From contig JAZDKZ010000006.1 of assembly GCA_043802485.1 (NCBI GenBank), positions 32,001-96,000 of the forward strand: a stretch of 64,000 nt of DNA. The letters are read 5' to 3'. Source of the stretch: Candidatus Aenigmatarchaeota archaeon. GTDB lineage: Archaea; Aenigmatarchaeota; Aenigmatarchaeia; Aenigmatarchaeales; Aenigmatarchaeaceae. Made by a program: the position numbers and the translations under genes. A model generated the notes under the pieces. It was not told where the DNA came from. It did no database searches and was given only the letters and a program-made list of their open reading frames with translations. Positions 825 to 45,633 of the stretch are shown here, one piece after another (positions within the stretch are counted from its first letter, which is position 1; each line of letters starts with the position of its first letter).

Positions 825-1385
825 ATGCCATTTCTACGAGACGAGAACGTCATAGTATTAGATTTCCTTTCAAGGGGGCATGCCACAGGTAGGCAGGAGC
901 CAATAGCTCAGGTCATAGGCAACAAGTACTTTTCCTTGTTAGAGGTGGTTGTGAAAAAGGACGTTATCCTGAAGACAGGTGATGTTGTCTACATAGGCGA
1001 GTCTAAAAGGGACAAGATAGACCACATAAAGAGAAGGATAACTGTAAGGGACCTTACAACATTCGCAAAGTCGGAGCTCCCCTTTGTGGTCGAGAAGGTT
1101 GTTGTCGAGAACGAGATAATATTTGTCGAGTTCTTCAACAAGGCGCAGTCAATCTCCACCAGGCTTCATCAGTTGGAGCTGATACCTGGCGTTGGCAAGA
1201 AGCACATGTGGGACATCATAAAGGAGAGAAAGAGCGGTCCCTTTGCAAACTTTGCTGACATAAAGAAGAGGATAAAGCTCATGCCCGACCCAAAGAGTTC
1301 TGTGATCAAGAGAATAATGGAAGAGCTTGATGATGACAACATCAGGTACAGGCTGTTTGTTGCAGGCCCGGTCAGAAGATTCTGA
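825..1385 (+). CDS. DUF655 family putative RNA-binding protein
   Basis: VLDFL..G, AQVIG..YFSLLE, RLHQLELIPGVGKK motifs. Confidence 0.9.
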   Translation: MPFLRDENVIVLDFLSRGHATGRQEPIAQVIGNKYFSLLEVVVKKDVILKTGDVVYIGESKRDKIDHIKRRITVRDLTTFAKSELPFVVEKVVVENEIIFVEFFNKAQSISTRLHQLELIPGVGKKHMWDIIKERKSGPFANFADIKKRIKLMPDPKSSVIKRIMEELDDDNIRYRLFVAGPVRRF

Positions 1386-1675
1386 TGGACGAATTAGAAG
1401 AGATGCAAAAACTTCTTTTGAAAATACCAAAGGGTAGGGTCGTTTCTTACAAGGAACTTGCCAGGAAGCTCGGCATCCATCCAAGGACTGCTGCTAGGCT
1501 TTTGAGCAGGAATCCATTTCCTGACAGATATCCCTGTTACAAGGTAGTCTGTTCTGACGGCAGACTCGGTGGCTATTCTGGGGGTCTGAAAGAGAAGAAA
1601 AAAAGGCTTGAGAAGGACGGAATAGATATTAGAAATGGTGGGATCGATATCAAGCGCTTTTATCACTTTTCTTAG
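1385..1675 (+). CDS. ogt: Short O6-alkylguanine-DNA alkyltransferase (MGMT/Ogt family)
   Basis: IPKGRVVSYKELA HTH, NP....PCYKVV (PCHR variant), LGGYSGG. Confidence 0.85.
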   Translation: MDELEEMQKLLLKIPKGRVVSYKELARKLGIHPRTAARLLSRNPFPDRYPCYKVVCSDGRLGGYSGGLKEKKKRLEKDGIDIRNGGIDIKRFYHFS

Positions 1676-2015
1676 ACCTTATTAGATATTTGCTTTTGGT
1701 GGGAAGCTTGGGTAAAATTATTTCGCTCACAGGCTCCTTTTTTCTGTTGTGTTTATCACATCCCCTATGCAAGAAAAATGAATAATCCATATGAGTAATA
1801 ACAAAGTCATAGTTAGGAGAAAGGCTGATATTAGAATCATCGGTAATGATAGAGGCACCAAGACCTGTCAATACAGTCTCTAAATTCTTTACCTTTGCCC
1901 CTAATTCGTACATTTTTAGCTTGCCATGTGCCTTAAGCAGTCTGACAGTGTAATGATTTTCAGAGCCTTTGACTAGGCATTTCAAAAATATACGTTCTTT
2001 ATTCACTTCTTCCAT
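1650..2015 (-). CDS. Hypothetical protein
   Basis: 121-aa AT-rich ORF, no recognisable motif. Confidence 0.5.
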   Translation of the reverse strand: MEEVNKERIFLKCLVKGSENHYTVRLLKAHGKLKMYELGAKVKNLETVLTGLGASIITDDSNISLSPNYDFVITHMDYSFFLHRGCDKHNRKKEPVSEIILPKLPTKSKYLIRSKKSDKSA

Positions 2016-2116
2016 TCAACATATTGCTGAATAAAGCTTTATATTATTACTGTCCAGTGATAGTTTTATATATGACCTATACCTTAATATTATTACGGCT
2101 AAGTGATAAAGGTGTT

Positions 2117-2317
2117 ATGGTGATACAGTTCAGAAACGGTGACTATATGTTCAGGAAAATAAAACCCAAAAGACCTGTTGTGATAAGAAACGGCAACACG
2201 GTTAAAGTTTGCTATTACTATCAGGGCACTAAAACGTGTCTGGGTCCTATGTGCTATTGGCTCAAGATAGGCCATTGTCCCATATGTAAAAGGATAAAGA
2301 CCAGAAACGCAAAGTAA
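2117..2317 (+). CDS. Small Cys-rich hypothetical protein
   Basis: ATG 2117 after AGGTG; several Cys including CPIC. Confidence 0.45.
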   Translation: MVIQFRNGDYMFRKIKPKRPVVIRNGNTVKVCYYYQGTKTCLGPMCYWLKIGHCPICKRIKTRNAK

Positions 2318-2327
2318 GGTGTAAAAT

Positions 2328-2561
2328 ATGGTCGAATATTGTAAACATTATGAAAGAGAGGGAGATTGTCCCACTATGACAGCTGCTAGAAACCTAATTA
2401 ATCACCACTCAGATGAAGCCCGCGTTTTTTATATATCTCCCACAAGTGGTACTAGAGCTAGTTCAAATGTTATAGCGCACGATGCTTTTTTAGAAATATA
2501 TTGTAGAAAAGGTGGTGCGGGTTGTGCTGTTAAACGCCATCTTGATAGTTGTACAACATGA
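2328..2561 (+). CDS. Small Cys/His-rich hypothetical protein
   Basis: 77-aa ORF with AGGTG RBS. Confidence 0.5.
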   Translation: MVEYCKHYEREGDCPTMTAARNLINHHSDEARVFYISPTSGTRASSNVIAHDAFLEIYCRKGGAGCAVKRHLDSCTT

Positions 2562-2579
2562 TAAATCTTTCATGAAATC

Positions 2580-3689
2580 TTAAAATTTTAATAATTTTTT
2601 AAAAGATTTGAAATCAGCATCAGTCTTTATTGCCGTAAGGCAGAAATGTGTTCTGGACGCTTTGAAGCCTTTTTTCCTCAGTTTTTTCAGCAAGACTTCT
2701 GTTTTGGGTATTGTGAAGCCTTTTGCTTTGGCTAAGCAGTGTATATCATAATAGAAAGGCGGCATGCCTGCTTCCGCTATCAACATATCCAGCAACTTCT
2801 CTTCCTTTTTTGCTAAAGCGAATTTCCTTTCTTTTAAATCTTCCAAGACCTTTTTGCAGAACGTCTTGTTGTTTATCTCTCCCAAGTACAGAGGGCCTGT
2901 TATCTGGAAGTCCTTGCCGCAGGAGCACTTCTCCTTTATCTTTCCGAAAACTCTGTTGCCGCATGAGCAGTGCATTACATAGCCGAACTCGTTGACAAGG
3001 TCATTTATCTTGCCCAAGCTTTCTATCCTTCCTATTGTTCTGAAATAATGCCTGTCAGAATGCGTTATCATTGGTATGAACGCCCTTTCCCTCTTCGATA
3101 GAGCCAGTATTATGTTAGTTAATAGTATCCTGATTCCAAGCTCTGCATAGTATTCTGTCTTCATTGACTTCAGTCCGTATTTCTTCAGGCATTTCAGGGG
3201 ATAGGTTCCTGAAAGCGGAGCCTGGTCAGTTGCTGTTACACATAACAGACCTTTGTGATGAATAGACCTTGCAGCAGAGTCGAGAAAGTTGACAGGCGAG
3301 CCGAAAGGATCAATGTCAATGACAACGAAAACGTTTTGATGTAGAAGCACGTTGGCGTCGCTCTTGCTTGTCTTGCATTTTTTCGTGAGCTTATTCTCCT
3401 TTATATTTTTCTTTATGAGTCTAACTGCGACAGGATTATTGTCATTCAGCACAACCTCTTTGGCATTCTTTATTTCCTTGGCATACCTCAGGCCTCTTGC
3501 GCCTGTTCCTGACAGTGCGTCGCATATGCTTATCTTGTCATCAAAATCTTTCTGAAAGACTTGTATAGCTGATATTGACAAATCCCTTAGCAATTCTGCT
3601 TCTGGGTTGTAGAATACAGAAGCTTTATGCTTGTCTTCCATGGGTATCCAGATTTTTGCCTTTCCTTCCTTGATTTTCTTTAGTTTCAT
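2580..3689 (-). CDS. trm1: tRNA (guanine26-N2)-dimethyltransferase Trm1
   Basis: VFYNP, DALSGTGARGLRY, DIDPFGSP, TATD, SRTHF motifs. Confidence 0.95.
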   Translation of the reverse strand: MKLKKIKEGKAKIWIPMEDKHKASVFYNPEAELLRDLSISAIQVFQKDFDDKISICDALSGTGARGLRYAKEIKNAKEVVLNDNNPVAVRLIKKNIKENKLTKKCKTSKSDANVLLHQNVFVVIDIDPFGSPVNFLDSAARSIHHKGLLCVTATDQAPLSGTYPLKCLKKYGLKSMKTEYYAELGIRILLTNIILALSKRERAFIPMITHSDRHYFRTIGRIESLGKINDLVNEFGYVMHCSCGNRVFGKIKEKCSCGKDFQITGPLYLGEINNKTFCKKVLEDLKERKFALAKKEEKLLDMLIAEAGMPPFYYDIHCLAKAKGFTIPKTEVLLKKLRKKGFKASRTHFCLTAIKTDADFKSFKKLLKF

Positions 3690-31388: not shown

Positions 31389-33029
31389 ATGAACGATATT
31401 TTTTGGTCAGACGAGATAGCAAGCCTCATGATCAATAGGAAAAAATACAATCATATTGACAAGAGGATTGAACCTTCAAAGAGCTTTGCTATAAAGAGCT
31501 CCACTTCCATATCCGGAGTTCCGCACATAGGCAATGCTTCTGATGTCATAAGGCATGATGCGGTCGTCAGGTCCTTGAAAGAAAAGGGGATGGATGTAAG
31601 GTTCATCTGGGTGGCTGAGGATATGGATGCTTTGAGAAAGGTTCCGGCAGGAATACCTGCCAACTTCGAGAAATACCTGGGCATGCCTGTTGCGGATGTG
31701 CCATGTCCTGAAGGCTGCCACAAGACCTACAGCGAGCATTTCTGCTCAAAGTTTGTTGACAGCCTGAAAGAGTTCGGGACGTATCCAGAGTACCTGTCGA
31801 CCTCGAAAGAATACAGAGCAGGCAACTTTTCTAAATGGATAAAGACGGTTTTCGAGAACCTGGATGAGGTAAGAAGCATTCTCAACAAAGGCAGGAAGAT
31901 CCCTCTCCCGGATGATTGGAATCCTTGGAAGCCTGTCTGCCAGAACTGTGGCAAATTAATGACGACAAAGGTGATTGGGGTTGACGGCAACAGCGTAAGA
32001 TACTCTTGCGATGACTACCAGTTCAAGCCGTACGGCGAGAAGGCCTACACAAAGCTCACAGGTTGCGGTCACAAGGGAGAGAGCGACATGAAGAACGGCA
32101 AATTGCTATGGCGTGTCGAATGGGGGATGCTCTGGGCTCACTGGAAAATAAACTTGGAAGGCGCTGGCAAGGAGCATTTCATGCCGAGCGGTTCGTTCTG
32201 GAGTGCTGGCGAGGTCGCTGAAAAGATATTCGGCTGGCCGGAGCCTTATCCTGGAAAGAACTACATACAGCCTTACGAGTATCTGACGATATCAGGCAAG
32301 AAGATGTCTGCTTCTGTTGGCAATGTCGTTTCCACATGGGAATGGCCAACGTTCGCTCCGGCGCAGATACTCAGGATGATATTTCTGAAAAAGCCGAATC
32401 GTGTGAGGGACTTTTCATATGAATATATTCCAAAGTACATGGACGAGTTCTACAGACTGCAGAGGATATATTTCGGCAAGGAGGAGGACGACAGGGAGGA
32501 ATTCTCCAAGAGGCTCTATATGATGAGCGAGGTTTATGTGCCTGATAAGATGCCTGCGCAGATACCTTTTGAATATGCTGCCATGGTATCTCAAATGGTT
32601 CCTGAGAAAAATTCTTTAGAAAAGGCTGTGCAGTTATTCAGGGCTACAGGTCATCTTGGCCAGGATTATGACGAAGCCAGAATCAAGAAGATTCTGAGCA
32701 TGGCAAAGAACTGGTCTGACAGGTACGGAGGCGACAGCTACAAGATAAAACTTATGGAAGAGCCGTCAAGGGAATTTTTGGAAAATTTGAGCAGCGACCA
32801 GAAGAAAGCGATAAAGATGCTGGCCGAAGCGCTTGCCGAAGACTTTTCAGAGAAAGAACTTTATAATAAGATTTTTGACATAATCAAGGAGACTGGCATA
32901 AAATCAAAGGAGTTCTTTGGAGCAGTTTACAGCATCCTCTTAGGCAAGCCTTGGGGTCCCAGGCTAACTCCTTTCATATTGATAATCGGAAGAGAAAGAG
33001 TAAAAAATATTCTGGACAAGGTTCAATAG
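31389..33029 (+). CDS. lysS: Class I lysyl-tRNA synthetase
   Basis: SGVPHIGN, GKLLWRVEW, KMSAS, GPRL. Confidence 0.95.
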   Translation: MNDIFWSDEIASLMINRKKYNHIDKRIEPSKSFAIKSSTSISGVPHIGNASDVIRHDAVVRSLKEKGMDVRFIWVAEDMDALRKVPAGIPANFEKYLGMPVADVPCPEGCHKTYSEHFCSKFVDSLKEFGTYPEYLSTSKEYRAGNFSKWIKTVFENLDEVRSILNKGRKIPLPDDWNPWKPVCQNCGKLMTTKVIGVDGNSVRYSCDDYQFKPYGEKAYTKLTGCGHKGESDMKNGKLLWRVEWGMLWAHWKINLEGAGKEHFMPSGSFWSAGEVAEKIFGWPEPYPGKNYIQPYEYLTISGKKMSASVGNVVSTWEWPTFAPAQILRMIFLKKPNRVRDFSYEYIPKYMDEFYRLQRIYFGKEEDDREEFSKRLYMMSEVYVPDKMPAQIPFEYAAMVSQMVPEKNSLEKAVQLFRATGHLGQDYDEARIKKILSMAKNWSDRYGGDSYKIKLMEEPSREFLENLSSDQKKAIKMLAEALAEDFSEKELYNKIFDIIKETGIKSKEFFGAVYSILLGKPWGPRLTPFILIIGRERVKNILDKVQ

Positions 33030-33748
33030 CCGAACCTTCTCTGCCGTCTGCTGTACTCTTTGACGCATCTTATGAGGTCCCTTTTGGTAAAGTCTGGCCA
33101 GCATTTTTTCATGACTATGAGCTCTGCGTAAGCGACCTGCCATGGCATGAAGCCGGATATCCTCTTCTCGCCTCCGGTCCTTATCAGCAGGTCTATGTCG
33201 TCCTTCACCAGCAGGTTGTCCTTTATCGTTTTTTCAGTGACTGTGACAACGCCTGTCTCCAAAGCTTTCTTGGCTATCTTCTTTACAGCCTGCGTGAGCT
33301 CGAACTTGCCGCCGTAGGCAACAAGAATATTGAAGACCCTTCTGTTGTACTTTTCAGTCTTTTTCATTATCTTGCCCATCACTTTTCTCAAACCCAAGGG
33401 CAGTTTTGTCAGGTCTCCGACAAACCGCATTCTTATCTCATACTTGTCCAGAAAGCTCTTCTTCTCGTTCTCTAGCTTTTCTAGCTCTTTCTGGAAAAGA
33501 CCTAGAAGGGCATTGACCTCCATTTTGGACCTGTTCAGGTTTTCAGTTGATAGGGCGAAAACAGAGACTTTGGGTATCTTCAAATCGACGCACCACTCGA
33601 ACAATTGCTCCAGCTTCTCAGCTCCGAAAGAATGCCCTTGCCAGGGCTTTAGGCTGTGCTTAAGGGCCCATCGTCTGTTAATGGGGTTTTACTAAACCTT
33701 TCCATCCAGGATGACGCCCAAGTGACTAGGTATTGCTGTTGCCTTCAA
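33023..33748 (-). CDS. uppS: Undecaprenyl/polyprenyl diphosphate synthase (cis-prenyltransferase), spliced: exon1 33748-33700, exon2 33678-33023, 234 aa
   Basis: TTG start with GGTGG RBS; MKATAIPSHLGVILDG|NRRWA restored on removing 21 nt; LSTENLNR, YGG, DLLIRTGGEKRISGF, RRFG. Confidence 0.88.
33679..33699 (-). other. 21-nt BHB intron in the uppS mRNA
   Basis: AGGTTTAGTAAAACCCCATTA; central helix ATGG:CCAT, bulges AA|A and TA|A, inner stem GGTTT:AAACC; in-frame TAG TAA. Confidence 0.85.
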
Positions 33749-34634
33749 ATAAATACCACCCTATTTTTGTTCTTTTCATTATGCCAGATTTGACTAATAT
33801 GTGCAAATAAAGCAATATAGTGTTTCTGTGCATTTTAACATTATATTTTTTCTCTATATAAGTTTTCAACTCCCTGAAATTCAGATTTTCAGGATACGAA
33901 CCTCTTAATTTGCTATAAAGCTCTTTCAAAATTGGCGCTTTGGCGTTAGCCCTTACAGGGAACAACTTAATTAGTTCTTCTATATCTGTTTTTCTATTTC
34001 CCCTGATTATTTCCAGTTTAGTCTTTTTAGGACCTTCAAGATTCTTCAAGAAGAAACCAAAAGATTTGCTATAGAAACCGTACTTCCATCTTTTCGACCA
34101 TCTTTCGAACTTTCTTTTGAAAAGCTTAACTCTGAGTTTGTTTTCCTTTAGAATATAGACCATTTGATCCCTTAGCTTCTTACTTATCGATGTAAATTCT
34201 ATTGTTCCGTCCAACTTCACAGAGCCGTCAAAAATCAATGCTGATGAAACAAATGATATCTTGTATTTATTGCCTCCCTTCATGATTTCTTCTGGTATTC
34301 TGACTATGCTCCCTTTCTTTCCATAGGGAAACCCTAGGCTGTGAAGGTATGGTATCAGATGTTTATTGCCTATTCTGAACCTAAAACCTCCCTTTAGAGG
34401 TTTTATTGAGCCTTTCTTACCTGTTATCTCCTTTACCCATTCCGAGATCAACTTTACATTCTCAAACCATTCATCCGTCAATTCGAAATAACTAGAATAA
34501 TAGTGGTGACCATTCCACATCTTTTTCTGCCTGTAAATAGTGCCGTCTGTGGCAAGGGCGCCGCACAGCTTGCATATCGTAATTCCTATATTTCCTTCAT
34601 GGATTTTAGAATTTGTAAGGGAAAAACCTTCCAT
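33726..34634 (-). CDS. Free-standing double-motif LAGLIDADG homing endonuclease with C-terminal wHTH-like domain
   Basis: KLCGALATDGTI and FVSSALIFDGSV motifs; no intein splicing motifs. Confidence 0.82.
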   Translation of the reverse strand: MEGFSLTNSKIHEGNIGITICKLCGALATDGTIYRQKKMWNGHHYYSSYFELTDEWFENVKLISEWVKEITGKKGSIKPLKGGFRFRIGNKHLIPYLHSLGFPYGKKGSIVRIPEEIMKGGNKYKISFVSSALIFDGSVKLDGTIEFTSISKKLRDQMVYILKENKLRVKLFKRKFERWSKRWKYGFYSKSFGFFLKNLEGPKKTKLEIIRGNRKTDIEELIKLFPVRANAKAPILKELYSKLRGSYPENLNFRELKTYIEKKYNVKMHRNTILLYLHILVKSGIMKRTKIGWYLFEGNSNT

Positions 34635-34732
34635 GAGAACTTTATTACATTCTCTGCTTAAATCTGTTTTTCACCAGAATAATAAAGGAAATTAAAAAGT
34701 TAAAGTCGTTTTATTTAGAAAAGATAAGCCGT

Positions 34733-34951
34733 CTAGAACCTTCTTGGCTTTTTCTTTGCGAAACAATCTCTACAAAATACAGGCTTACCTTCGGTCGGCT
34801 TGAATGGAACTTCACATTCCTGGCCGCATTCCGAGCAAACAGCTTTGTGCATTTCTCTTGGACCCCTGTCGAAACTGGGTTTTCCTCTGTTAAAGCCGCC
34901 GCCACTTCCACCTCTGTCTCCGCCGAAGCGTCTGTCTCTATCGAATGGCAT
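34733..34951 (-). CDS. CxxC-x17-CxxC zinc-ribbon protein
   Basis: PREMHKAVCSECGQECEVPFKPTEGKPVFCRDCF. Confidence 0.92.
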   Translation of the reverse strand: MPFDRDRRFGGDRGGSGGGFNRGKPSFDRGPREMHKAVCSECGQECEVPFKPTEGKPVFCRDCFAKKKPRRF

Positions 34952-35085
34952 CTAATTCATTACTCCTTATTTAATATAAGAGTTGGTTGGTTTTGGGTCT
35001 TTATAAAGTTGATTTCTTGAGGGGTGGGGTTGAGCGAATATGAGATTTTTAAACGTATTTAAAATTTCGGTCAGAATTACATGCT

Positions 35086-42852: not shown

Positions 42853-42917
42853 AATACCACTCTCAATGGTAAATAAATTATATGTTTAATGTTTTTAATC
42901 AATCTCTAGACGATAAG

Positions 42918-43754
42918 ATGAGAAATTATAGCATAAAAGAGTATAATGAGGTTCTTGAGCTTAGAAAGAAACGATTAACATTCAGAAAAATCTCTAAGAT
43001 TTTGGGAATACCTATGAGTACCATATATATGTGGACTAGAGGCTCTTTGCCTATGAAGCATTCCAAAAAACATAGAGAACACAGAATAAAAAACATAAAA
43101 ATGATTAATGAGAAAAATAGAGGATCAAGAGAAGAAAAATACAATAATTTAAAACGGAAAATTGATACTAATTTTGCGTTCGTCTTAGGTTCTGTTTTAG
43201 GTGATGGTTGCATTAGTTTTACTAAGCGCAATGGTGGTCAGGTTACTCTAATTACTAAAGATAAGGACTTTGCTTTAGATTTTAAGAAATCGTTAGATGA
43301 ATGGAGTTTAATGAAATCTAAATTGATATATTATAGAAACGTATGGCAAGTATGGTCTTATTCTACAGTTATTGCAAAATGCCTAAAATATTATAACCTT
43401 AGCGATATTTTCAGAACAGATGAAAACATTAAATGTTCCTTTCTAAGAGGTATATTCGATGCTGAAGGTAGTGTTGATGTTAAAGGCAAGAAGATAGTTT
43501 TTGCTAACACATCTACAGAAATAACAGAAATTACTAAAATATTATTGGAAGATATTGGAATAGAATGTAAAGTTTACAATAGATTCTCAAATACCAGATA
43601 TATAGAAGGCAGGAAACTTTTTCCTGGCACATACTTTGTAATTCAGATAGGCTCTAGAGAAAATTTGAAAACATACCATGAGAAAGTGGGTTTTTCCATA
43701 AACAGAAAACAAGAAAGATTGGATAAGATTATAAAATCTTATAAGCCTCTTTGA
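42918..43754 (+). CDS. Free-standing LAGLIDADG endonuclease with N-terminal HTH
   Basis: FAFVLGSVLGDGCI and SFLRGIFDAEGSV, IVFANTS, VGF..RKQ; AT-rich. Confidence 0.88.
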   Translation: MRNYSIKEYNEVLELRKKRLTFRKISKILGIPMSTIYMWTRGSLPMKHSKKHREHRIKNIKMINEKNRGSREEKYNNLKRKIDTNFAFVLGSVLGDGCISFTKRNGGQVTLITKDKDFALDFKKSLDEWSLMKSKLIYYRNVWQVWSYSTVIAKCLKYYNLSDIFRTDENIKCSFLRGIFDAEGSVDVKGKKIVFANTSTEITEITKILLEDIGIECKVYNRFSNTRYIEGRKLFPGTYFVIQIGSRENLKTYHEKVGFSINRKQERLDKIIKSYKPL

Positions 43755-44314
43755 TCCAGAGCCCAATTTATAATCGATATACAAGAACTGGCAAGATACA
43801 CGTTTTTTCCAATAGATATCTTTTCGCCGTATCGTAAAGCAAAGCTTTCCTCCCTGCTTGGAAGTCCGATTTGGTCTCCTAGTATTATCATAGGGTTCTC
43901 TTTCAGTTGAACTTCGTTGATGGGAGTCCCCTTTTCATGCAGAACATAAACATTGGAGTCAGTCTCCTTGATAATATCCTGGAAGCTCTTCCTTGCTATC
44001 TGCGTTCCATGGACATCAGACCAGTCCTTGCCAAATCTTGTTGACAATAGTTTTTTTATCCATCTTGCATTGGCCTTCTCGTCAACATAGACTTTCAAAA
44101 GCTTGGAGCCGTCGAAGCATATGGTGACAGGAGCTCTTGACGGGCCATTGAGGTTGACATAGAACTTTGTGTCTTCCCTTGCCCTGTGGGACATCCACAG
44201 TGCGGAAGTTATGCACCTGCATACCAGGTCCATCCTACCTGCCTCCACAAGCTTTTCCTCTTCGAACCTGTTGTCGGTCCTTCCCTTTCTAGAATACAAA
44301 ACAAAGGACCTCAT
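43739..44314 (-). CDS. trmY: tRNA (pseudouridine54-N1)-methyltransferase TrmY
   Basis: GRMDLVCRC, LHEKG, ILGDQIG, ISIG..YLAS SPOUT motifs. Confidence 0.9.
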   Translation of the reverse strand: MRSFVLYSRKGRTDNRFEEEKLVEAGRMDLVCRCITSALWMSHRAREDTKFYVNLNGPSRAPVTICFDGSKLLKVYVDEKANARWIKKLLSTRFGKDWSDVHGTQIARKSFQDIIKETDSNVYVLHEKGTPINEVQLKENPMIILGDQIGLPSREESFALRYGEKISIGKNVYLASSCISIINWALDQRGL

Positions 44315-45633
44315 ATCTTGAAACCTTTGAATCTCTTCATCATATTGCCCATCATGCCGCGTTTGCCAGAGAACATCTTCAACACCTTCTTCATCTGCTC
44401 ATAAGTCTTCATCAGTTCCCTGACCTCTGCCTCTGTTGTTCCTGAACCCTTGGCAATCCTCTTTACCCTTGACGGGTTTATCAGCTGCGGGTCCTGCTTC
44501 TCCTGCTTTGTCATCGACTGTATTATGATGGCCCATTTCTTCATCTTGTTCTCCTGCTTGTCAGCGTCAAACCCTTTGGGCATCTTCATTGCCGACATGC
44601 CAGGAACCATGTTCATCATAGAGCTCATCGAACCCATCTTCTGCATGGATTTCAGCTGCTCGTAGAACTCGTCCATGTTGAACTTACCTGTCATTATTTT
44701 TTGAGCAGTTTCCGGTTTGATCTCCGCTTCCTTTGCCTTTTCAAGAAGGCCCTGCATGTCGCCAAAGCCTATCATTCTTGAGATGAACCTCTCGGGGTCA
44801 AAGACTTCGATAGCATCGACCTTCTCCCCAGTGCCTATGAACTTTATTGGCGCTCCTGTCACTGCACAGGATGTCAAAGCACCACCACCTCTGGCAGTTC
44901 CATCCATCTTTGTAAGAAACACGCCTGTTATACCAACGAGCTTCTTGAAACCTTCTGCTTGTTCTCCTGCAGCCTGACCGAGTTCAGCCGGTATTGTCAG
45001 CAATACCTCGTCAGGTTTCACCAAATCTGCCAGCTGCTTCAGCTCCTTTGCCAGTTCCTCATCCAAAGAGCTTCTTCCTGATGCGTCGAAAATAATGATG
45101 TCATATTTCTTGTGCTTGTTCAGCCCGTTCTTCACAATCTCCAGCGGGTCCTTGATGTCCTTCGGAGCGTAACAGGGAACGTGAATCTGCTCTGCCAATT
45201 GCGAAAGCTGGTCCATGGCAGCAGGCCTGTGAACGTCGCAACCGATTAAGGCGGGTCTCAGACCCCTTTTCTGGTAGAACTTTGACAATTTGCCGATGGA
45301 GGTGGTCTTGCCAGAACCGAAAAGGCCCACAAACATTATCCTTCCAGGCTTCAGCATCAGCTCGGTCTTCTCGCCAACGAACTTTACCAGCTCGTCATAA
45401 ACGATTTTGGTGACATGCTCCTTCGGTGTCAAGCCCTTGGGTGGCTTTTCGTTGACAGCTCTGTCCCTTATCTCGTCTGTCAGCTTTTGCGCAAGCTTGA
45501 TATTGACATCCGCCGATACTAGGGCCTTGTAAATATCGCTAGACAAATCCTCGACTATCTTCTTGTCGACATAGCCTGCCTTTGTCAGTTTTCTCAGGGC
45601 ATCCTTTATGCCGCTGCTTAATCTGTCCAGCAT
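44311..45633 (-). CDS. srp54: Signal recognition particle protein SRP54
   Basis: GLFGSGKTT, DVHRPAA, TKMDG, Met-rich M domain; ATG 45633. Confidence 0.96.
   Translation of the reverse strand: MLDRLSSGIKDALRKLTKAGYVDKKIVEDLSSDIYKALVSADVNIKLAQKLTDEIRDRAVNEKPPKGLTPKEHVTKIVYDELVKFVGEKTELMLKPGRIMFVGLFGSGKTTSIGKLSKFYQKRGLRPALIGCDVHRPAAMDQLSQLAEQIHVPCYAPKDIKDPLEIVKNGLNKHKKYDIIIFDASGRSSLDEELAKELKQLADLVKPDEVLLTIPAELGQAAGEQAEGFKKLVGITGVFLTKMDGTARGGGALTSCAVTGAPIKFIGTGEKVDAIEVFDPERFISRMIGFGDMQGLLEKAKEAEIKPETAQKIMTGKFNMDEFYEQLKSMQKMGSMSSMMNMVPGMSAMKMPKGFDADKQENKMKKWAIIIQSMTKQEKQDPQLINPSRVKRIAKGSGTTEAEVRELMKTYEQMKKVLKMFSGKRGMMGNMMKRFKGFKI

Follow-up and report, generated by a model that had tools for sequence, protein, structure and literature searches.

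A LAGLIDADG nuclease gene and a BHB mini-intron inside the uppS gene of a groundwater archaeon: a candidate homing cassette

The window, i.e., the whole stretch of DNA that was analyzed, is 64,000 nt long and comes from a tiny groundwater archaeon of the DPANN group (Aenigmatarchaeota-class), whose genome is labeled G000 here. One of its loci, read on the minus strand, carries a nuclease gene followed by an interrupted uppS gene and comprises the following features, given in the order of reading:

34676..35008, minus strand: upstream flank common to G000 and the nuclease-free genome G003, with a small zinc-finger gene (34733..34951) and an A/T-rich, promoter-like stretch (blastn)
33726..34634, minus strand: LAGLIDADG homing-endonuclease gene, 302 aa, with two nuclease half-domains and a C-terminal winged helix (ORF, motifs, AlphaFold model, Foldseek)
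34584..34634, minus strand: first ~17 codons of the nuclease gene, presumed to be left over from the ancestral uppS exon 1, termed E1* (start position and homologue N-termini)
33755..33761, minus strand: Shine-Dalgarno-like GGGTGGT within the conserved G-W-Y codons of the nuclease, 6 nt before the uppS TTG (sequence; putative function)
33701..33748, minus strand: uppS exon 1, TTG start, 16 codons, ending in ..V-I-L-D-G (sequence and likeness to the G003 exon 1)
33680..33700, minus strand: bulge-helix-bulge (BHB) mini-intron, 21 nt, with central helix ATGG/CCAT, bulges AAA and TAA, and inner hairpin GGTTT-AGTA-AAACC (fold, shuffles, covariation)
33023..33679, minus strand: uppS exon 2, from N-R-R-W-A... 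to the stop codon, encoding a cis-prenyltransferase of the undecaprenyl-diphosphate-synthase type (PF01255)

A profile search of the G000 genome identified the interrupted gene as its sole uppS match. Exon 2 scores 225 bits against PF01255 (profile positions 5-219), and the encoded protein shares 77.6% amino-acid identity over 259 residues with that of the genus mate G003. Exon 1 has the same length of 16 codons in both genomes, and the score of its similarity to the G003 exon was reached by 0 of 2000 shuffles. The mini-intron places two in-frame stops, TAG and TAA, between the D-G and the N-R-R-W-A codons. The minimum-energy fold of the insert has the BHB shape: its central helix measures 4 bp, its bulges are 3 nt each, and it includes an inner hairpin. 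With the cut set behind the second base of each bulge, every case read regains D-G-N-R-R-W-A, as judged against intron-less relatives. The bounds of the mini-intron are 33700-33680, or 33699-33679 with this cut, the two being equivalent owing to the runs of A. The genome encodes the splicing endonuclease EndA (C7:89475-89756; PF01974, 95.6 bits) and the RNA ligase RtcB (C6:30674-31978; PF01139, 575 bits), and we infer that these two enzymes splice the mini-intron out of the RNA.

The nuclease gene ends with a TAG stop codon at 33728-33726 (minus strand), so that its ORF contains the uppS TTG (33748-33746) and overlaps the uppS start by 23 nt. The word GG(G)TG(G/C)TA also precedes the TTG start in other cassettes of the G000 nuclease family. 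These details agree with the sequence-only reading, which had described a co-oriented double-motif LAGLIDADG gene overlapping the uppS start (ORF, both motifs and overlap are in the sequence), a ribosome-binding word for uppS within that gene (GGGTGGT at 33761-33755, whose role is likewise putative), a nuclease stop less than 30 bp from the intron (the intron begins 25 nt past it), and an ORF-less intron splitting the most conserved uppS codons (21 nt, exactly between D-G and N-R-R).

The LAGLIDADG label given in that reading holds with one qualification. The 302-aa protein carries the motifs LCGALATDG and FVSSALIFDG, and D30/G31 and D136/G137 are invariant in an alignment of 18 nuclease homologues. 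The AlphaFold model (pLDDT 89.5, pTM 0.87) displays a doubled alpha-beta-beta-alpha-beta-beta-alpha order, and its top Foldseek matches are PI-PfuI, the TliVMA intein endonuclease, I-Tsp061I and I-DmoI, with a probability of 1.00 for PI-PfuI, I-Tsp061I and I-DmoI. The qualification concerns Pfam, where the protein stays below the gathering scores of LAGLIDADG_3 (17.1 bits vs 22.5) and Endonuc_subdom (17.4 vs 24.4). The assignment is thus based on the motifs, the invariant D30 and D136 of the 18 homologues, and a confident model with structural matches among LAGLIDADG homing endonucleases. The G000 nuclease is a divergent branch, its nearest known relative being 66% identical, whereas the nucleases of genomes G038, G138 and G150 do pass the Pfam cut-off.

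Comparison with G003 places the nuclease gene relative to the ancestral layout of the locus. The upstream flanks of the two genomes are 84.6% identical over 338 nt, with the homology ending at 34676 (blastn); the zinc-finger gene within the flank matches zf_Tbcl_2 (Pfam). Counted from where this homology stops, the nuclease ATG follows after 42 nt in G000 and the uppS ATG after 39 nt in G003. The nuclease homologues P0002, P0004, P0006, P0007 and P0015 start with the uppS exon-1 peptide IH[VI]A[LVI]IP.. Since the nuclease starts where uppS starts in G003, and its relatives begin with the exon-1 peptide, the nuclease gene appears to lie within uppS, with a second exon 1 after it. In related nucleases the fusion to exon 1 extends exactly to the D-G-K junction, which indicates that the insertion point is the intron site. 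The earlier description of the nuclease as free-standing calls for refinement on this point, as the gene appears to be lodged inside uppS with a second exon 1 downstream. The upstream flank is probably the native promoter of uppS and would now serve the nuclease.

In G000 itself, E1* is presumed to be the old uppS exon 1 on the basis of its position and of the relatives; in a DNA-level test it did not rise above shuffles (228 and 1238 of 2000). A regex search found no exon-1-like peptide at or upstream of the nuclease starts of G038, G138, G150 and G004, and we accordingly make the old-exon claim for the G000 nuclease family alone. In G000, the functional exon 1 resembles that of its own genus rather than the exon 1 found in hosts of the closest nucleases known; the second exon 1 may come from an unsampled close donor, an in-situ duplication or later conversion.

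An uppS interruption at these codons was found, with varying lengths, in 15 independent assemblies. The 14 distinct introns compared measure 13-33 nt, and most of the lengths are not divisible by 3. All four central-helix pairs form in 12 of the 14 and three of four in the other 2; the variable pair of this helix is T-A in 5 introns, T-G in 1, C-G in 8 and C-A in 0. Despite unrelated sequences, the inner stem reaches at least 4 bp in 12/14. In an alignment of 9 introns, 98.6% of cells pair, compared with 86% in shuffles and 17-50% when the alignment is slid; 5 of the 8 pairs change on both sides, and in the inner hairpin all 4 pairs do so with 100% of cells paired. The outer exon-exon helix is present in the minimum-energy folds and was left out of the covariation counts, its register being variable. 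A self-splicing group I intron is ruled out by the 13-33 nt size and the BHB shape.

To analyze the co-occurrence of nuclease and intron, an intron-first scan, blind to the nuclease, was run on 371 genomes of the class with a site-specific pattern that detects only introns whose 5' bulge reads AAA. The pattern matched 12 genomes in the forward direction and 0 reversed, 11 of the 12 matches lying at uppS. The match in G331 is not at its uppS and was rejected as false; the intron of G004 was added through a profile scan, which gives 12 intron-bearing genomes. The intron sits at the D-G/N-R-R site in 11 of these and 6 nt upstream in the remaining one. The class-level uppS profile search covered the best 150 of about 370 matches, so the frequencies are lower bounds, and an order-level scan yielded nothing beyond the first 61 genomes. 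Directly upstream of the 12 introns lie 8 intact, co-oriented LAGLIDADG-type genes, 1 frameshifted gene and 1 stump of 25 codons, with none at the other 2:

G000, G063, G123: nuclease of the G000 family, intact upstream of the intron
G080: nuclease of the G000 family, frameshifted
G038: another LAGLIDADG_3 gene, 46 bits
G138/G143: another LAGLIDADG_3 gene, 52 bits
G150: another LAGLIDADG_3 gene, 44 bits
G004: HTH_3 ORF, LAGLIDADG-like by motif only
G132: nuclease stump
G121, G133: intron without any nuclease trace; a tRNA gene in that place

The tRNA genes upstream of uppS in G121 and G133 have Rfam lengths of 88 and 111 nt, suggesting introns; ARAGORN reported no tRNA upstream of uppS in these two genomes.

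Upstream of 32 intron-less uppS loci, no nuclease (0/32) was found by Pfam, by-eye reading and one protein query, which had overlooked the nucleases of G038 and G004. The converse, nuclease-first search found 12 loci, and the 7 distinct ones with downstream DNA, together with G000, all carry the intron (8/8). The sequence-only reading had implied that nuclease and intron should occur together, and the distribution bears this out, with an intact, broken or stump nuclease in 10/12 intron genomes against 0/32 intron-less loci, counts that come from related genomes and are not independent. Neither search turned up the nuclease next to an intact D-G-N-R-R site, which is what one would predict were the intron to provide its immunity. 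At least three unrelated-looking LAGLIDADG lineages each precede an intron at the same uppS codons; an hhalign comparison of the G000 nuclease-family alignment with the upstream proteins of G004 and G038 gave probabilities of 1.8% and 4.1%, which does not support common descent. A quick look beside the second LAGLIDADG gene of G004 and two further free-standing LAGLIDADG genes of G000 revealed no obvious mini-intron.

The genus mates G001-G003 have neither nuclease nor intron. In the uppS tree, G000 is sister to the intron-less G003 (support 100/99); in the nuclease tree, it groups with nucleases whose hosts belong to a distant uppS clade (support 99/98). A DNA contig from run X1 joins 34674 to 33655, omitting the cassette with the same boundary as in the G003 comparison; the joint was matched at 85% likeness with the letters between its sides unread, and it gives a weak hint of a cassette-less variant. 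Contigs identical to the window span the stretch in runs X1 and X3. The elements of a homing cycle are found here, namely presence and absence among close relatives, decayed copies (G080 and G132) and a horizontal signal, and the patchy distribution, the decayed copies, the possible nuclease-less variant of the same sample and the incongruent trees fit homing.

We consider it probable (roughly 0.7) that the locus holds a homing-endonuclease cassette lodged in the 5' end of uppS, whose nuclease homes to the intron-less allele and whose BHB mini-intron gives immunity. The LAGLIDADG enzyme would cut uppS alleles with an uninterrupted D-G|N-R-R coding sequence, and repair from the cassette-bearing allele would copy the cassette in. 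The nuclease would then use the promoter and start codon that formerly belonged to uppS, the former exon 1 decaying into the nuclease N-terminus, while a second exon 1 would follow the nuclease, served by a ribosome-binding word in its last codons, and after it the 13-33-nt BHB mini-intron and exon 2. Thanks to the mini-intron, the re-created junction of exons 1 and 2 would not serve as a DNA target, and the tRNA-splicing endonuclease and RtcB would excise the mini-intron from the bicistronic RNA, so that uppS would stay functional. Later in the cycle the nuclease gene would decay and disappear, leaving the intron. We infer the cleavage site, the immunity, splicing in vivo, co-transcription and the origin of the second exon 1 from genome comparisons, and on this footing the two-part homing interpretation offered in the sequence-only reading is supported.

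The same features can be explained in other ways. An unlikely one is that the cassette is a dead relic, with a nuclease once situated inside a larger BHB intron or once active and now inactive, transmitted only vertically with repeated losses. Such a history would account for the distance to the closest known nuclease (just 66% identity), for a native-like exon 1 next to a strongly decayed nuclease start region, and for the frameshifted and stump copies in other genomes; against it stand the intact G000 ORF with both catalytic aspartates invariant in the 18 homologues, the possible cassette-less variant in the same sample and the conflict between nuclease and uppS trees across the starred branches, and vertical descent would require three or more precise losses within the clade of G001-G003, G013, G018 and G019. 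The mini-introns of G121 and G133, which lack a nuclease, would suit a nuclease that homes elsewhere, for example to the spacer between the genes or to the start of uppS, with the mini-intron an unrelated neighbor hitch-hiking by linkage. We regard this as quite improbable, given that at least three unrelated-looking lineages precede an intron at the same codons, that nuclease-exon 1 fusions end at the D-G-K junction, and that the nuclease accompanies an intact D-G-N-R-R in 0/32 loci and an intron in 8/8.

The two LAGLIDADG halves with a C-terminal HTH, the fifth place of WhiA in the Foldseek ranking and the co-transcription with uppS suggested by position recall a domesticated, WhiA-like LAGLIDADG and helix-turn-helix protein that regulates uppS or the operon. 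A regulator of this kind instead of a mobile nuclease is very improbable: the protein retains its catalytic aspartates, the three genus mates and most of the class lack the gene, a frameshift or deletion affects it in some hosts, and it is tied to the intron and not to uppS as such. Hardly credible, finally, is an uppS pseudogene, an assembly error or a translational bypass (readthrough or hopping) in place of splicing. An uppS match is indeed missing in 52/371 genomes of the class, but G000 has one uppS only, with an intact exon 2 and the above identity to G003; the interruption recurs in the 15 independent assemblies at lengths (13-33 nt) of which most are not divisible by 3, with covariation preserving the RNA structure, and the X1 and X3 contigs are identical to the window.

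The homing-cassette reading suggests a so far undescribed route for introns into archaeal protein genes. The published literature searched contained no comparable cassette in archaeal genes and essentially one case of introns in archaeal protein-coding genes, cbf5. The uppS locus and its 15 or so relatives provide a concrete and testable candidate origin for archaeal mRNA introns, a homing endonuclease needing an intron for its own immunity; the comparative series covers all stages, from intact nuclease through frameshifted gene and stump to intron alone. We give about even odds to a broader proposal, a general archaeal class of mobile cassettes (homing endonuclease gene, replacement exon and BHB mini-intron) that would invade essential protein genes at their most conserved codons, capture promoter and start codon, and leave tRNA-type mini-introns after nuclease decay; this class would be a main source of the rare archaeal mRNA introns, and uppS D-G|N-R-R would be a hotspot independently invaded by several nuclease lineages. 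The DPANN tRNA-splicing machinery is probably required for making an essential lipid-carrier enzyme. The uppS introns are very small (13-33 nt) natural BHB substrates within mRNA, and the LAGLIDADG enzymes, whose presumed target ranks among the most conserved coding sequences known, are relevant to meganuclease work.

Several known systems resemble parts of this arrangement. BHB introns of archaeal rRNA and tRNA encode LAGLIDADG endonucleases such as I-DmoI and I-Tsp061I, the ORF lying inside the intron of a stable RNA. They share with G000 the enzyme fold (TM 0.68-0.78 on target), the intron type and the splicing machinery; the G000 intron differs in being ORF-less and in mRNA, with the ORF preceding a duplicated exon. 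In fungal mitochondria, mobile endonuclease ORFs replace gene ends, e.g., in Allomyces atp6. There, as in G000, the element brings a substitute gene end and the old end is left as a scar, but no intron is involved, whereas in G000 the displaced end is the 5' one and a mini-intron separates the substitute. The G000 paralogue on contig C1 represents a 3'-end version of gene-end replacement.

The cbf5 pre-mRNA of Crenarchaeota contains a BHB intron (Watanabe 2002 and Yoshinari 2006, via PMC12397907; Yokobori 2009, PMC2738675), which, as far as the available text of these sources goes, is like the uppS intron in lying within a protein-coding sequence and in having been gained and lost among relatives. 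It belongs to another gene and another phylum, the uppS intron being smaller and tied to a nuclease cassette; the available portion of PMC2738675 mentions no homing endonuclease associated with the cbf5 intron. In fractured genes, as the accessible part of PMC2677866 describes them, split inteins are combined with a homing endonuclease gene that stands by itself between the two halves of the gene. Here too a nuclease gene has settled inside a host gene, whose product is recovered by a splicing device; according to the same portion of that source, the device is protein trans-splicing of two polypeptides, in contrast to the RNA splicing and duplicated first exon of G000.

The closest conceptual parallel drawn for the locus is collaborative homing in phages, in which, in the available text of PMC3984707 and PMC2790892, a free-standing nuclease acts with a group I intron that has no ORF. 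In both settings the intron lacks room for the nuclease gene, which is located outside it; this intron occupies a highly conserved site (in G000 the presumed nuclease target) and would confer immunity, and linkage permits co-conversion. The G000 system differs in that its intron is a protein-spliced archaeal BHB element of 13-33 nt instead of a self-splicing ribozyme, its host is a cellular archaeon, and its nuclease appears to lie within the gene, read from the old start, with a second exon 1 after it.

The genome under study (G000; 769 kb, 7 contigs, 89% complete) belongs to a DPANN archaeon and contains a single match to the cis-prenyltransferase gene uppS in a profile search. The window is G000:C6:32001-96000, and the sequencing runs matching the stretch are groundwater and biofilm metagenomes. 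In minus-strand order the locus consists of the following features, with a class I lysyl-tRNA synthetase gene convergent with the end of uppS:

34733..34951, minus: small zinc-finger gene, first in order, followed by a 98-nt spacer
34634..33726, minus: 302-aa nuclease ORF, two LAGLIDADG-type motifs and a C-terminal winged helix
33748..33701, minus: uppS exon 1, 16 codons, TTG start, V-I-L-D-G at its end, overlapping the last 23 nt of the nuclease ORF
33700..33680, minus: insert (mini-intron) in uppS, 21 nt, in-frame TAG and TAA
33679..33023, minus: uppS exon 2, N-R-R-W-A to stop, PF01255 at 225 bits (profile positions 5–219)

This layout bears out the sequence-only reading, which had placed a double-motif LAGLIDADG gene over the uppS start and a mini-intron at conserved uppS codons: the 302-aa ORF shares 23 nt with the TTG-started exon 1, and the 21-nt BHB insert separates D-G from N-R-R-W-A. 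The zinc-finger gene (zf_Tbcl_2, treble-clef, 72 aa) also precedes uppS in the genus mate G003 and in G038, another genome of the class (extracted loci L026 and L092), and the insertion point between the two genes is used by two different nuclease lineages.

Pfam returned only below-threshold LAGLIDADG matches for the 302-aa ORF. Despite this, it is predicted to be a LAGLIDADG endonuclease, because D30/G31 and D136/G137 are invariant across its 17 homologues (50–66% identity), its AlphaFold model is confident (pLDDT 89.5, pTM 0.87), and the structures closest to that model are PI-PfuI, the TliVMA intein endonuclease, I-Tsp061I and I-DmoI, with WhiA fifth.

Further LAGLIDADG genes are present in G000. 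A 286-aa paralogue, 32% identical and with an HTH tail, is located at locus L002 (G000:C1:126584-130036, 967..3435). It has a full GTPase gene (354 aa) on one side and, on the other, an orphan duplicate of the final 29 codons of that GTPase gene (69% identical); the arrangement resembles a cassette that took the place of a gene's 3′ end and has no intron. The second free-standing gene, a double-motif LAGLIDADG_3 member at window 42873..43754 (plus strand; 293 aa, 54.7 bits), has an HTH at its N-terminus and shares 16 nt with the end of a convergent gene of 219 aa (43739..44398, minus); a quick look there showed no mini-intron. A third (226 aa; L098, G000:C5:11148-14381, 1444..2124, minus) lies ~130 nt from a tRNA-Val gene, and three more matches, in ORFs of 863, 1052 and 1220 aa, are probably inteins.

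Judged by sequence and predicted fold, the uppS insert is a BHB intron. In its minimum-energy fold the central helix is ATGG/CCAT, the 5′ and 3′ bulges are AAA and TAA (the first base of the latter being paired G-U), the inner hairpin is GGTTT-AGTA-AAACC, and there is an outer exon-exon helix. Excision following the second base in both bulges would remove 21 nt and yield D-G-N-R-R-W-A, as read in intron-less relatives; G000 encodes both the splicing endonuclease and RtcB, and we infer that the mini-intron is spliced. A profile scan of 61 genomes revealed two further interrupted uppS genes, with 13 nt at the same position in G038 and 31 nt located 6 nt upstream in G004; G132, among the matches listed by a class-wide profile search, carries 20 nt. 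Within the class, a site pattern derived from these inserts matched 12 of 371 genomes; reversed, it matched none. Eleven of the matches are in uppS and one (G331) is outside it. Genome and metagenome loci together gave 14 distinct introns of 13–33 nt. Central-helix pairing is 4/4 in 12 and 3/4 in two, its one variable pair being T-A in 5, T-G in 1, C-G in 8 and C-A in 0; in 12 of the 14 the inner stem has 4 bp or more, and the stem sequences are unrelated. Across 9 aligned introns, 98.6% of cells paired versus 86% in shuffles (0/500 as high) and 17–50% with a slid partner, and 5 of 8 pairs changed on both sides.

The association with the nuclease was surveyed from both directions. The intron-first survey, blind to the nuclease, sorted the 12 intron-bearing genomes by what lies directly upstream of uppS: an intact nuclease of the G000 family in G000, G063 and G123; a frameshifted one in G080; other LAGLIDADG_3 genes with HTH domains in G038, G138, G143 and G150; an HTH_3 ORF, LAGLIDADG-like by motifs only, in G004; a 25-codon stump of the nuclease C-terminus in G132; and no nuclease in G121 and G133, where a divergent tRNA gene occupies the space. 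These tRNA genes (L080 1315..1402, L083 1669..1779; 88 and 111 nt by Rfam, both missed by ARAGORN) probably carry introns. None of 32 intron-less uppS loci had such a nuclease gene (~1.4 kb of upstream DNA each; Pfam and by eye), and the G000 nuclease as query matched no uppS locus in 60 relatives. The nuclease-first survey covered 12 loci from GTDB and JGI contigs; 3 stop short and two pairs duplicate each other, leaving 7 distinct loci with downstream DNA, and in all 7 plus G000 exon 1, mini-intron and exon 2 directly follow the nuclease. The proposed co-occurrence is thus upheld, with a nuclease trace in 10/12 intron-bearing genomes versus 0/32 intron-less loci; the nuclease was never seen beside an intact uppS site in these loci, while the mini-intron can outlive it.

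The same sequence-only reading had called the nuclease free-standing. It is a separate ORF ahead of the mini-intron, but homologue starts and ATG positions place it within uppS, with a second exon 1 behind. Five homologues (P0002, P0004, P0006, P0007, P0015) open with the exon-1 peptide of uppS (..IH[VI]A[LVI]IP..), which runs as far as the D-G-K junction, and continue as nuclease; in the metagenome locus mg67, duplication between the start of the nuclease and the exon 1 that follows it is visible; and in G000 the nuclease ATG is 42 nt beyond the point where flank homology ends, against 39 nt for the uppS ATG of G003. These observations lead us to a model of insertion inside the gene. An insertion at D-G|N-R-R would leave the nuclease starting from the original promoter and exon 1, and uppS would be restored by the mini-intron and a second exon 1, the latter with a putative GGGTGGT ribosome-binding word within the nuclease G-W-Y codons; the intron would shield the restored exon 1/exon 2 junction from being a target. 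The opening codons of the G000 nuclease have lost exon-1 likeness beyond statistical recognition. Its functional exon 1 is native-like (0/2000 shuffles equal its score against G003), so it may be either the cassette's own or a duplicate of the host's.

Several signs of mobility accompany this insertion. The three genus mates have uppS without an intron and no nuclease at the locus, and homology between G000 and G003 spans 35008 to 34676 (84.6%) and picks up again precisely where exon 2 begins, at 33679. A DNA contig from run X1, found at 85% likeness, joins 34674 to 33655 and skips the cassette, a weak hint of a cassette-free variant. In the uppS tree (44 rows), all 12 intron-bearing rows fall within an N-R-R-W-A clade of 20 rows, and G000 has intron-less G003 as its sister (100/99) within a group that lacks the intron. 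The 18-row nuclease tree places the G000 enzyme with those of mg67 and P0002–P0007 (99/98), whereas the mg67 uppS lies in a distant, starred clade.

Runs X1 and X3 contain a second strain, ~90% identical over uppS exon 2 (window 33027..33655), the differences falling mainly on every third base; the sampled population thus carries two or more uppS alleles. Across loci L004–L087 the uppS tree has two deep clades, N-R-R-W-A and N-R-R-F/L-A, at odds with the genome families: f1 genomes occur in both, and G063 (f16) is nested among f24 genomes. uppS itself may move or be replaced, perhaps travelling with the cassette. The relative G029 has a second uppS-like match, a weak one (106 bits, one in-frame TAG), at G029:C49:13764-14444.

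In the literature searched, cbf5 was the only mRNA BHB intron case, and the combination of an ORF-less mRNA BHB mini-intron, a second exon and a nuclease that is read from the displaced start of the gene was not found, in line with the earlier view that the arrangement is not known to have been described for archaeal mRNA BHB introns. In its parts it matches archaeal BHB introns and the LAGLIDADG enzymes that go with them, and its logic is that of collaborative homing in phage group I introns (PMC3984707).
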